From positions 1 through 14,141 of IMG/VR virus record IMGVR_UViG_3300033405_000012: DNA of 14,141 nucleotides; one strand, given 5' to 3'. The translations under genes were made by a program, and so were the position numbers. Origin of the DNA: a virus (Duplodnaviria; Heunggongvirae; Uroviricota; Caudoviricetes). Below the pieces are notes generated by a model. The model saw nothing but the letters and a program-made list of their open reading frames with translations, was not told the origin of the DNA and did no database searches. Below, one piece after another: positions 1 to 3,241 of the stretch; the first letter of the stretch is position 1, and each line of letters starts with the position of its first letter.

Positions 1-1073
1 ATGATTCCATATAGGCCGGCGAATCCATGTGTTGTCAGCCACCCGGAATTTGGCAGCTTGCCGCCATGCTTGGCGACGAGGCGCTTGGCGATTGCGACCC
101 ATTCCTGCGGCGTGCGTTTTTTCTTTTCCTGCGGGATGCCGGCGAAGAGCTTCGGACGCCTCCTCATGGCCTCAGAAAGGCTGGAAAAGCCGTGTGTTGT
201 CAGCCACCACGAATTTGGCAGCTTGCCGCCGTGCTTGGCGGCCAGGCGCTTGGCGATGTGGACGTGTTCCGTCACACTTTTATGCGCGCGCACCTGCACG
301 ATATGTGCAAACGTGCTGCGATTCTTTTGGATGACCGTGCAAAGCTGCCGGTGCCCGTGTTGCATGAGCCATTGATAATTGGGCAGTTTGCCGTGCTTCC
401 GTGCAAGTTGCTCGGCTTCTCGAACATATTTGGCAACGGTAGCCGCATGACGAGTTGATCGGGACGCGCGTGGCAGGTGGGCAAAGTGGTTAGGGTGGTC
501 TTTCATCGCCTCGAACAGGTTCTTCCGGCCGTGATTCGCAAGCCACCGAAAGCCTGGCACATGACCGTGAATCTTGGCTAGGCGCTCCGCGTCTTGGATA
601 TAAGCGGCCAGTAGTTCCTTTCGTCGCGGCGCTTGATGCAAGTGTGCGAAGGCACTGGGATGTTTCCGCAGGGCACGATAGATGTGTTCCTTGCCTATGC
701 GGATAAGCTGTGCAGGTAATTTGCCGCCGTTCGCTCTCGCAAGTTCTTCCGCCTCACGGACGCATTCCGCCAGGGACCGGCCGCGTTGGGGATGTTGTGG
801 AAGGTGCGCGAATGCCCCGGGATATTTCCAGAGCATGGCGGCCAGGGCTGGTTGACCGTGTTTGAGAAACCAGAAGCCTGTCGGCAGCGTACCGTGTTCC
901 CTGACGAAGTGTTCGGCGTCCTTGACATGCTCTAGCAGGCGTTTGCGGCATCGCGCCTGTGGAATGTGGGCGAATGCTTCAGGACGGCGGTTCTTGATGT
1001 CAACAAGATCACTGTAGCCATTTGCAAGAAGCCAGCTCAAAGGCGGCAATAGTCCTTTATACTTGCGTCTCAT
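1..1073 (-). CDS. Tandem ~55-aa helical-repeat protein, 3'-partial (runs off window; not in supplied ORF track)
   Basis: Manual translation from ATG 1073 gives 357 stop-free codons: MRRKYKGLLPPLSWLLANGYSDLVDIKNRRPEAFAHIPQ...RLLEHVKDAEHFVREHGTLPTGFWFLKHG...SVTEHVHIAKRLAAKHGGKLPNSWWLTTHGFSSLSEAMRRRPKLFAGIPQ...PQEWVAIAKRLVAKHGGKLPNSGWLTTHGFAGLYGI. At least 7 repeat units of 54-58 aa. Start codon uncertain (weak SD). Confidence 0.9.
   Translation of the reverse strand, partial: MRRKYKGLLPPLSWLLANGYSDLVDIKNRRPEAFAHIPQARCRKRLLEHVKDAEHFVREHGTLPTGFWFLKHGQPALAAMLWKYPGAFAHLPQHPQRGRSLAECVREAEELARANGGKLPAQLIRIGKEHIYRALRKHPSAFAHLHQAPRRKELLAAYIQDAERLAKIHGHVPGFRWLANHGRKNLFEAMKDHPNHFAHLPRASRSTRHAATVAKYVREAEQLARKHGKLPNYQWLMQHGHRQLCTVIQKNRSTFAHIVQVRAHKSVTEHVHIAKRLAAKHGGKLPNSWWLTTHGFSSLSEAMRRRPKLFAGIPQEKKKRTPQEWVAIAKRLVAKHGGKLPNSGWLTTHGFAGLYGI
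29..257. repeat. Direct repeat, 64-nt copies at 29-92 and 194-257 (period 165 nt = 55 codons)
   Basis: gtgttgtcagccacccggaatttggcagcttgccgccatgcttggcgacgaggcgcttggcgat vs gtgttgtcagccaccacgaatttggcagcttgccgccgtgcttggcggccaggcgcttggcgat; 59/64 identical. Confidence 0.95.
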
Positions 1074-1163: not shown

Positions 1164-1340
1164 TCACCGGGTTCTCCGTGAACGGTGTCGAAAGGCGTCC
1201 GGGCGCTTTTCGATGGCATTGGCAATTACGGGATAGTTTGCCTTCAGCCAGCTTGTGTCCTTCGGCAGCGCGATGTTGTTGGCCGCCAGGTGCTCGGCGG
1301 TGCGAACGTGCTCAGCCAGGGTTTTCGTGGAACGGGACAT
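1164..1340 (-). CDS. 58-aa protein consisting of a single copy of the ~55-aa repeat
   Basis: GGAG SD 8 nt before ATG 1340. MSRSTKTLAEHVRTAEHLAANNIALPKDTSWLKANYPVIANAIEKRPDAFRHRSRRTR matches the repeat consensus L.EHV..AE.LA...LP...WL.......A..K.P.AF.H. Confidence 0.75.
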   Translation of the reverse strand: MSRSTKTLAEHVRTAEHLAANNIALPKDTSWLKANYPVIANAIEKRPDAFRHRSRRTR

Positions 1341-1385: not shown

Positions 1386-1630
1386 TCAGTTCTTAGGTGG
1401 AAAATGCGGGACGAAGGCGCGAACCGTGCTATTGGTAGGCACGGCGAATTCCTCAACGCCGTTCCGAAGTGCCAGGGCTTCGGCGCGGGCAATGTGCTCG
1501 TCAAGTGTTAGGGTGCTCCGGCCGAGAATCCGGCGCATGTCGGTGAAGGTGCTTGTCCCGCAGAGGCCCGAGGCCAGCGTCAGGAAGCCTTCGGACAGGT
1601 CCATTGTTTTGAGGACCTCGAAGGGGACTT
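1386..1630 (-). pseudogene. Frameshifted C-terminal continuation of the SF2 helicase
   Basis: Adding one base near 1627-1628 (GGC AAG [G]TC CCC TTC GAG) joins ...RRQRGK to VPFEVLKTMDLSEGFLTLASGLCGTSTFTDMRRILGRSTLTLDEHIARAEALALRNG...PKN* (TGA 1386-1388). This gives a ~618-aa product. Confidence 0.65.
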
Positions 1631-3241
1631 GCCGCGCTGCCGCCGGACGGTGTAAGCAAACCGTCGCCAGAGCCGTTCCCAAGTGGCCTTCCACCGTTCT
1701 TTCGGGATGCCATACTTGCTCAGCAGGCCGCGACATTGACGGTAGGCCGTCTCGTAGTCATGGTCGTGGACGGCGATGAAGAATTCTCGCTGGAATTCAA
1801 GAAAGGCGTTGCTGTCGGGGAACAGGTCGATCAACTTGTCCGAGTGGCGGTCGCGTGTGCGCCTGCTCCGTTTACACTTGGCGTCCGGTCCCGTGACGCT
1901 GATCGGCAGGAATACGTCCTCCAAGAGCATGGCCGCAAACATCACGGTAAGGATGCTGTTTTGCCGATCCTTGAAGTCCTTGCAGTTCGGCACGGCGGCC
2001 GGGAGCACCTGGTAGACTTCCGCGTGTTTCTTGCCGGGGCCGCGACGGAAGAGGCGGCCAATCATCTGAATCTTCTCGGGGATCGAGTACCGCTCGCCAA
2101 GAATGATGCAGCGCTGGGCGGAATCCCAGTCGAAACCTTCTTTGCAGGTGTCGAGCGCTAGGATGATGTCCACCTTCTTGCTCTTGTCCTCTTTGCTGCG
2201 GTCAAGGTAGTGTTTACGTGCGGCCCGGCCCTGCTCGGTCACAAGGTCAAGAATATGCAGGTGTCCGATACGAATGAGCCTCGCACCTGTCTCGGGGTCC
2301 GTGATTCGCTTGGCTGCCTTGTGGTAAAGTTGCGAAAGCTGCCGAATGATTTTTCGGACCTCCGTGTACTTGCAGGCTTCTGCATAACGGCTGTTGCGCT
2401 TGGCCAGATAGAGGATGGTGGACGCCTGCCGCCGGAAGATGCGTTTCAAGGCTTCCAGAGTGCTGCCGCAAATGACCCTGAACTCGAACGACTCGACAGG
2501 GGCGCACTCTCGAAAGTATTCCTCGTAGTCGATGTGGGCCTCCACGAATTGAGCTTCCCGCAGCGCGTCCGGGATGATGTGCCGCATGTCGCCGCGCTGG
2601 TAAGTGGCTGTGGCTAAGCCGACATGGGTGCCACGGTGGGCGGCAGCGTGCTTGACCAGTTCACCGAGCGCATTGCTGATCGTCTCGCGGCTGTTGACGA
2701 CTTGGGCGTTCATTACGTGGTGCCCTTCGTCAATCCAGACTAGCGTGTTCTTGAGCGCATCTAGTCGGTTGCTGCGCTTCAGTCGGCGATACGCTTGCGC
2801 CAGCGTGGCATGGGTACAAATGAGGATGCGGTCGGCGAGACTGATGGGCCGCCGGGTGAGAAAGCTGAGAAGCTCGTGGACCGTGTTGAGGGTGTACGGT
2901 TCACAGAGATTGTACTGTACCTCCCATCGGAGGCGTTCGGCGTGTCCCGGCACATGAAGCTGCCAGTCACGTCGGAAATTGCTGCCGATGGTGGTTTGCG
3001 GAACGGCGATAACGCAACGCAGACGTGGATCGCGCAGTAGCTTGGCCAGCGTCAGGATGCACATGGCGAGGCTCTTGCCCCACCCTGTAGGTGCTTCCAG
3101 AATCATGCAACGGGCGTCCTTGAGAACGCGGACCACCTTGTTCTGCGAATCCCGTAGCACGGGCTCGGCCGGCGGGGCGATTGGCGGGAGGGCAACACGA
3201 TCCCACCGGTGGGAAATCAGACGTTGTGTTTTCAGAGTCAT
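1580..3241 (-). CDS. Superfamily 2 (DExH-box) helicase, YeeB-like; apparent frameshift near C-terminus
   Basis: AAGGAGA SD before ATG 3241 (MTLKTQ). Walker A APTGWGKS, ILICTHATL, motif II DEGH, motif III TAT, KEGFDW, motif VI QMIGRLFR. The motifs IAVPQTTIG, YNLC, RGD, IILALDTCKEGFDW and MLLEDVFLP resemble the YeeB helicase family as I recall it (not searched). Confidence 0.9.
   Translation of the reverse strand: MTLKTQRLISHRWDRVALPPIAPPAEPVLRDSQNKVVRVLKDARCMILEAPTGWGKSLAMCILTLAKLLRDPRLRCVIAVPQTTIGSNFRRDWQLHVPGHAERLRWEVQYNLCEPYTLNTVHELLSFLTRRPISLADRILICTHATLAQAYRRLKRSNRLDALKNTLVWIDEGHHVMNAQVVNSRETISNALGELVKHAAAHRGTHVGLATATYQRGDMRHIIPDALREAQFVEAHIDYEEYFRECAPVESFEFRVICGSTLEALKRIFRRQASTILYLAKRNSRYAEACKYTEVRKIIRQLSQLYHKAAKRITDPETGARLIRIGHLHILDLVTEQGRAARKHYLDRSKEDKSKKVDIILALDTCKEGFDWDSAQRCIILGERYSIPEKIQMIGRLFRRGPGKKHAEVYQVLPAAVPNCKDFKDRQNSILTVMFAAMLLEDVFLPISVTGPDAKCKRSRRTRDRHSDKLIDLFPDSNAFLEFQREFFIAVHDHDYETAYRQCRGLLSKYGIPKERWKATWERLWRRFAYTVRRQRGKSPSRSSKQWTCPKAS

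Follow-up and report, generated by a model that had tools for sequence, protein, structure and literature searches.

An unnamed array of small helical repeats in a Caudoviricetes record is probably the detached C-terminal arm of a neighbouring SF2 helicase

At the very start of a Caudoviricetes record in IMG/VR (IMGVR_UViG_3300033405_000012), a reading frame that runs off the contig encodes tandem copies of a small helical module, and the question is what such an array does and to which neighbouring function it belongs. We analysed the first 14,141 nt of this linear 78,792-nt record (CheckV completeness of 77%), hereafter the window; the record begins at window position 1, and nothing lies to the left of the window within it. 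The stop-less frame had been pointed out by the initial annotation and is real: it lies on the minus strand, is open from position 1163 to the contig start and has a conserved ATG at 1073. The missing 3' end was supplied by P0003, a protein of 435 aa that is identical over the stretch and present on five other contigs; the translation of window positions 3..1073 (minus strand) equals P0003 residues 1-357. One of these, the 8.5-kb ENA contig L003, matches the window over 4 kb with 99.75% identity.

In the complete P0003, a half unit at the N-terminus (residues 1-39) precedes seven full units (residues 40-93, 94-147, 148-202, 203-260, 261-315, 316-370 and 371-425) and a basic tail of 10 residues, which makes eight units. 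The window covers the half unit, the next five units in full and part of unit 7, while unit 8 and the 10-aa tail fall outside it, and the features of the array are the following (bit scores are those of each unit against the unit HMM):

1..1073, minus strand: array gene P0003, 5' 357 codons, running off the contig start
957..1073, minus strand: unit 1, a half unit without helix 1 that starts M-R-R-K-Y-K-G-L-LP (HMM positions 20-56)
795..956, minus strand: unit 2, residues 40-93 (40.8 bits)
633..794, minus strand: unit 3, residues 94-147, with the slot between LP and W one residue shorter and without the conserved W (39.7 bits)
468..632, minus strand: unit 4, residues 148-202 (50.5 bits)
294..467, minus strand: unit 5, residues 203-260, 58 aa with a longer linker (65.9 bits)
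129..293, minus strand: unit 6, residues 261-315, the first of three 165-nt DNA-level copies (75.5 bits)
3..128, minus strand: unit 7, residues 316-357 of 316-370, truncated where the contig ends

An HMM trained on units of other proteins alone gave P0003 a score of 433.5 bits, compared with at most 7.9 bits for 200 shuffled sequences, and with this same independent model each of the eight units was recovered with an E-value between 1e-12 and 1e-23. The tandem repeats were thus rightly recognised from the sequence, and only the count of at least seven copies has to be reworded, with the partial set listed above in the window and eight units in the whole protein. The spacings first given (55, 54, 58, 54 and 55 aa) are close to those that we measured on the F-A-H-I-x-Q anchor along P0003 (54, 54, 55, 58, 55, 55 and 55 aa). 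On re-reading the units we also found the same residues between LP and W as had been listed, namely PLS, TGF, AQ (one residue shorter), GFR, NYQ, NSW, NSG and NPK in P0003 and KDTS in a stand-alone unit of 58 aa described below, and the richness in Arg, Lys and His was borne out as well (K+R 20%, His 7%, pI 11.4, net charge of +60). Pairwise identity among the units of P0003 ranges from 26 to 64%.

A rough consensus was drawn from 709 units of about 160 proteins. It begins with a K/R-rich linker and T-x-E-E-W-V-x-x-A-E-x-L-A-x-x-(N/H)-G-G-x-L-P-x3, and continues with W-L-x2-N-G-Y-x-G-L-x3-(M/I)-x3-P-x2-F-A-H-I-x-Q; the conserved core comprises A15, L18, G24, L26, P27, W31, L32, L40, P48, F51, H53 and I54. 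Tandem Repeats Finder, run with the default score on the window, reported no DNA-level array. The last three units of the gene are tandem DNA copies of 165 nt, 79% and 65% identical to the first (L003 5663-6157; window positions 1-270 for the portion present), and the array therefore appears to grow by unit duplication, these copies at the 3' end pointing to a fairly recent event. Such tandem duplication would multiply the units and yield the array lengths of 3 to 13 units.

Directly upstream of the array region lies an SF2 DEAD/ResIII helicase, and its link to the array had gone unseen in the first reading of the sequence. The relevant features are:

1580..3241, minus strand: SF2 DEAD/ResIII helicase, shortened in this record (called product P0169, 553 aa)
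1386..1632, minus strand: displaced 3' end of the helicase, which the sister contigs alone have in frame; it codes for a degenerate unit 0 and for helix 1 of the unit after it
1458..1508, minus strand: helix-1 half unit T-L-D-E-H-I-A-R-A-E-A-L-A-L-R-N-G (HMM positions 7-24, 8.7 bits)
1164..1340, minus strand: ORF of 58 aa, one complete stand-alone unit (40.6 bits, E 1.7e-14)

On the sister contigs the intact helicase has 621 aa. The window is without 10 nt (GCTTGAAGCT) between positions 1632 and 1633 that are present at L003 4291-4300, and the frame is therefore shifted, so that the helicase ends at 1580 with its last ~90 residues removed and the helix-1 piece is detached from it in this record. 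The deletion may be a real variant or an assembly error.

A DEAD/ResIII helicase was found N-terminal in 9/9 of the long array relatives scanned, and 21 of the ~160 relatives retrieved had at least 800 aa, with their 4-12 units placed only after residue ~435-640. Searching with the C-terminal 192 residues of the intact helicase recovered both split forms (547-612 aa) and fused forms (856-951 aa). In the alignment, 13 split helicases stop right after a helix-1-like segment (T-L-E-E-Y-V-L-M-A-E-E-L-A-A-R-N), and at that very point the fused helicases continue into G-x-L-P-x3-W-L. The reciprocal half unit, M-K-K-x-x-G-x-LP without helix 1, forms the start of 55 of the 137 stand-alone arrays. Since helicases stop after helix 1 and arrays start at G-x-LP, the two genes are separated at a conserved point within the first unit. 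The helix-1 piece at 1458..1508, at the C-terminus of the helicase, is the counterpart of the helix 1 that the array lacks. Judged from these sequence comparisons, the array would be the C-terminal arm of an SF2 DExH helicase, which is fused in many relatives and encoded by a separate downstream gene here, in other words the detached tail of the upstream helicase. That a small domain is divided between two genes at a conserved point, helix 1 going with the helicase and all that follows it with the array, is in itself of interest, and it leads to a simple prediction of how a helicase and a DNA-binding arm could be joined non-covalently.

Between helicase and array, the window also has the 58-aa ORF with its single stand-alone unit, which has no counterpart in two related elements, L004 (an island in a MAG of Planctomycetaceae) and L007 (a second provirus from IMG/VR). 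This ORF is preceded by GGAG 8 nt upstream, ends with TGA and is in frame with the array, whose ATG lies 90 nt downstream. In both L004 and L007 the stop codon of the helicase shares the sequence ATGA with the start codon of the array, an overlap that suggests coupled translation of the two genes. A programmed frameshift joining the two was considered and rejected; the A-rich run lies past the helicase stop, where a ribosome in the helicase frame would not reach it. A complex prediction for the C-terminal 117 aa of the helicase with array residues 1-95 scored 0.13 against a required mark of 0.32, and was returned as 'no answer'.

The wider neighbourhood was read on longer sister contigs, in which the helicase, the 58-aa unit and the array are followed by a protein of 191 aa, an HTH_17 protein, a tyrosine integrase on the opposite strand and then cellular genes. 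This order, ending in the integrase and cellular genes, places the module at the integrase end of a prophage, the host of which is probably a member of Planctomycetota. The order helicase, array, ~190-aa protein, HTH and integrase is kept in three elements (L003/window, L004 and L007), and more distant arrays likewise adjoin SF2 helicases. The 191-aa protein (P0020, L003 6164-6739) lies just downstream of the array and always follows it, with homologues in L004 and L007; it had no family match, and its Atlas model resembled class I SAM methyltransferases (TM 0.66-0.76). The HTH_17 protein between this methyltransferase-like protein and the integrase is excisionase-like. Searches of PHROGs and PADLOC gave no meaningful match for the array or the 191-aa protein, and only generic DNA-helicase, PbeA and Csf4-type partial matches for the helicase.

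Variants of this arrangement were seen in several elements. In L007 (4278-8228) the helicase reads as a pair of ORFs (441 and 160 aa), after which come two array genes rather than one, with products of 373 and 401 aa. Another locus, L005 (6001-8657), carries two consecutive arrays with different repeat types, P0007, which belongs to the P0003-type family, and P0167, which showed a faint match to INT_rpt (PF14882). Both start with a similar N-terminal peptide (M-L-K-R-W-Q..G-W-(D/E)-(E/D)-F), perhaps a tag by which the two dock on the upstream helicase.

Taken together, we consider P0003 to be the detached, basic, nucleic-acid-binding accessory arm of the adjacent SF2 helicase, with a probability of about two in three for this predicted function, which is derived from sequence comparison and structural models. 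Helicase and array would be produced together from one operon, and the two polypeptides would rejoin, possibly with the divided first unit completed in trans. The very basic array would use the H2/H3 face of each unit (helices 2 and 3 of the predicted fold) to bind nucleic acid, most likely DNA, and would tether or position the helicase on its substrate. Alternatively, the ligand of the basic helical array could be RNA or an acidic protein. The helicase itself could serve in phage DNA processing, or in defence or counter-defence.

The fold was predicted with AlphaFold2 for the whole of P0003 (7 sequences; pLDDT 79, pTM 0.27) and for two units (44 sequences; pLDDT 91.3, pTM 0.58). In the predicted unit, H1 (~14 aa) is followed by a bridge at LP, H2 (6 aa), H3 (9 aa), H4 (4 aa) and a second bridge at IPQ, and a one-residue bridge is predicted to connect the L of LP with the unit end. 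This order, H1-b1-H2-H3-(H4)-b2, is in the models that of a minimal winged helix. A VIA wide search of solved structures gave a best Z of 3.6, below significance; among the top 50 VIA matches obtained with single units, many were winged-helix or HTH domains, all with Z of at most 3.6, and the winged-helix/HTH assignment of the modelled unit is thus based on many weak matches together with the predicted topology. Foldseek against PDB returned only PPR/TPR-type helical repeats at TM 0.1 for the whole model and nothing at E<=1 for the two-unit model, and the BFVD viral library had nothing at E<0.4. In AFDB the array matched other arrays at E 1e-8 to 1e-3, among them R2SYV7 (5e-6), R2SEH8 (1.8e-4) and an entry named HNH endonuclease (2.3e-4); the names of the matches include HNH endonuclease, LAGLIDADG homing endonuclease, helicase-associated domain protein and helicase. 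R2SEH8 is listed as the representative of PF18780 in PMC8078820.

With these models the initial proposal of a tandem array of small, helical, HTH-like modules gains support, and its loose likeness to HA and homing-endonuclease-associated repeats was recovered as shape matches in AFDB and in the ESM Atlas. A rigid form of the solenoid that was also envisaged is not among the predictions, as no regular superhelix was predicted with confidence either for the whole protein or for two units (pTM as above). A C-terminal effector such as a nuclease, expected beyond the window, is absent: the complete P0003 has no nuclease or other effector domain and ends 10 aa past unit 8.

Three other readings of the array, one of them the TALE-like reader taken up below, were weighed alongside that of a nucleic-acid-binding arm. 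It is improbable that the units form a protein-binding scaffold that assembles or oligomerises the helicase, or recruits phage or host proteins, without binding nucleic acid. Contacts between proteins are indeed a frequent role of small helical repeats, the shape neighbours include the RecX-type tandem three-helix repeats that bind the RecA filament, and the two different arrays of L005 have in common an N-terminal peptide resembling a docking tag; however, the charge of +60 and the pI of 11.4 fit a polyanion better, and the nearest classes of repeats, HA and HNH_repeat, accompany enzymes that act on DNA. We hold it for still less probable that P0003 is a histone-like phage protein that coats DNA or RNA non-specifically and independently of the helicase, in a neighbourhood that is merely historical. 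The protein is extremely basic, and here a truncated helicase stands next to an intact array gene, as such a reading would have it, but fusion and adjacency to a helicase recur across distant members, and the conserved break inside unit 1 argues for a continued joint function of helicase and array.

A more ambitious version of the helicase arm, in which the array is an exchangeable targeting subunit of a helicase-plus-methyltransferase module, seems to us quite unlikely. The array would dock by completing unit 1 in trans, its units would read short DNA stretches with residues before H2 and on H3, and duplication and divergence of units would re-aim the helicase. If this were true, it would represent a modular DNA-recognition principle not yet described for helicases. 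Much depends here on selectivity: if the units are sequence-selective, arrays of 3-13 units would be a natural modular scaffold for DNA recognition, and if they are non-specific, the array would be an ordinary accessory DNA-binding tail.

The initial annotation had gone further and singled out the residues between LP and W as a hypervariable slot with TALE-like specificity. We compared this slot with the remaining columns over the 709 units. Slot columns 28-30 had entropies of 3.32, 3.94 and 3.69 bits, and columns 5, 13, 25, 33, 38, 41 and 42 had 3.36-3.91 bits; with ten columns reaching at least 3.3 bits, the slot is no outlier, and its special status was not upheld. Variable columns 33-34, 38, 41-42 and 45-46 map to H2 and H3 of the predicted module. 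Between P0005 and P0006, a pair of close orthologues, identity was 64% over the ten columns of highest variability and 80% over the rest (one pair, a small sample), and the variable columns are therefore neither fixed determinants nor sharply diversifying. The variability pattern in the sequences looks like that of an ordinary small domain with a conserved core and a free surface rather than a TALE-like design. A TALE-like programmable reader, in which the three LP-W residues of a unit would recognise one base or a few and the array would spell out a long DNA target, is accordingly very unlikely. The slot residues do differ in every unit, the slot lies just before H2 and the other variable columns fall on predicted H2/H3, where an HTH would face DNA, but about seven other columns vary as much as the slot, the range of unit identity spreads the variation over the whole unit, the orthologue pair shows the behaviour just described, the linkers are K/R-rich and variable in length, and a confident regular superhelix is missing from the model (pTM 0.27).

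The extent of the family was assessed with a profile of 30 units, in line with the search that had been proposed at the outset. Among 1.84 billion representatives, 916 clusters (at 50% identity) matched at E<=1e-3 and 294 at 1e-30. Of 301 genomes sampled from the phylum of genome G001, the unit profile matched just one, G001 itself, an occurrence that fits carriage on mobile elements, and a related-locus profile search of genome contigs found only the Planctomycetaceae MAG. That no named family could be assigned still stands: hmmscan against the copy of Pfam used gave no meaningful match for the array, NCBIfam had nothing for the array, PF26683 (Tyr_recomb_halo_N) appeared only as a faint precomputed match, and the unit profile against PDB sequences returned only chance-level rows.

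Four known systems can be compared with the array. TALE repeats are near-identical but for two residues and form a regular superhelix. The array is like them in being made of tandem short helical units, in principle able to follow DNA, and differs in the 26-64% identity of its units, in variability over about ten columns and in the regular superhelix, which is not predicted here. Winged-helix and HTH domains (e.g. the LexA N-terminal domain, Lrp/AsnC, Z-alpha and Rpa2 WH) have the order H1-bridge-H2-H3-bridge predicted for our units, which differ by an extra short H4 and by one-residue bridges in place of a wing.

The helicase-associated domain HA (PF03457; NMR structure 2kta) resembles the units in its arrangement. 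HA is a small helical module that occurs in multiple copies C-terminal on bacterial SF2 helicases, and an HA-like arrangement is present in our family, with the helicase followed by 4-12 units in the fused relatives and the two parts split into adjacent genes here. For DNA binding by HA domains, PMC12191111 refers to Mills et al. 2013 (its reference 64). AFDB entries named helicase-associated domain protein matched the array at E ~1e-3. The two differ in motif and in length (64 HMM positions in HA versus 56 here). Across the 78.8-kb record the HA model (threshold of 28.4 bits) returned nothing at E<=10, no HA row appeared when P0001, P0003 and homologues were scanned with hmmscan, and 2kta was absent among the structure matches from VIA and from Foldseek against PDB. 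Profile comparison with hhalign gave P 0.027, obtained with a thin HA profile of three sequences.

The nearest arrays by predicted shape, in both AFDB and the ESM Atlas, are those of HNH_repeat (PF18780), with Atlas neighbours at TM 0.48-0.50 for two units. They likewise consist of tandem ~54-aa helical units, with the same order of elements, a long first helix, G-x-x-P and two or three short helices. When the unit profile was aligned with hhalign to a PF18780 profile of 18 units from Planctomycetota genomes, columns 2-41 matched columns 2-41 with a probability of 42% and P 2.6e-4, while the reversed control had P 0.025. The PF18780 HMM gave no match on P0003 or at the array locus of genome G001, and on P0005 and P0006 it gave 18.9 and 15.4 bits, compared with a cut-off of 26 bits. 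The signatures are also distinct, LP-x3-WL-x2-NGY and P-x2-FAHI-x-Q here versus F-G-S-W-x2-A-L-x2-A-G-L in PF18780, and so are the partners, a helicase here and an HNH or LAGLIDADG nuclease in HNH_repeat; none of the proteins scanned (P0003, its homologues, the long relatives and the chimeric arrays) had a homing-type nuclease domain. The chimeric arrays P0070 (L034 5001-6827) and P0093 (L035 5001-6953) carry true PF18780 units (E 1e-60 and 1e-13) and, after them in the same polypeptide, units of the P0003-type family. Three array genes were also observed in L034, after a distant homologue of the helicase.

On the basis of sequence profiles and models, the units would thus form an unnamed, distinct sequence family within the HNH_repeat (PF18780)/HA structural class, and a member of neither Pfam family as currently defined. 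It is a sizeable repeat family that the current Pfam models of HA and HNH_repeat miss, and it is tied to both classes through predicted shape and through the chimeric arrays.
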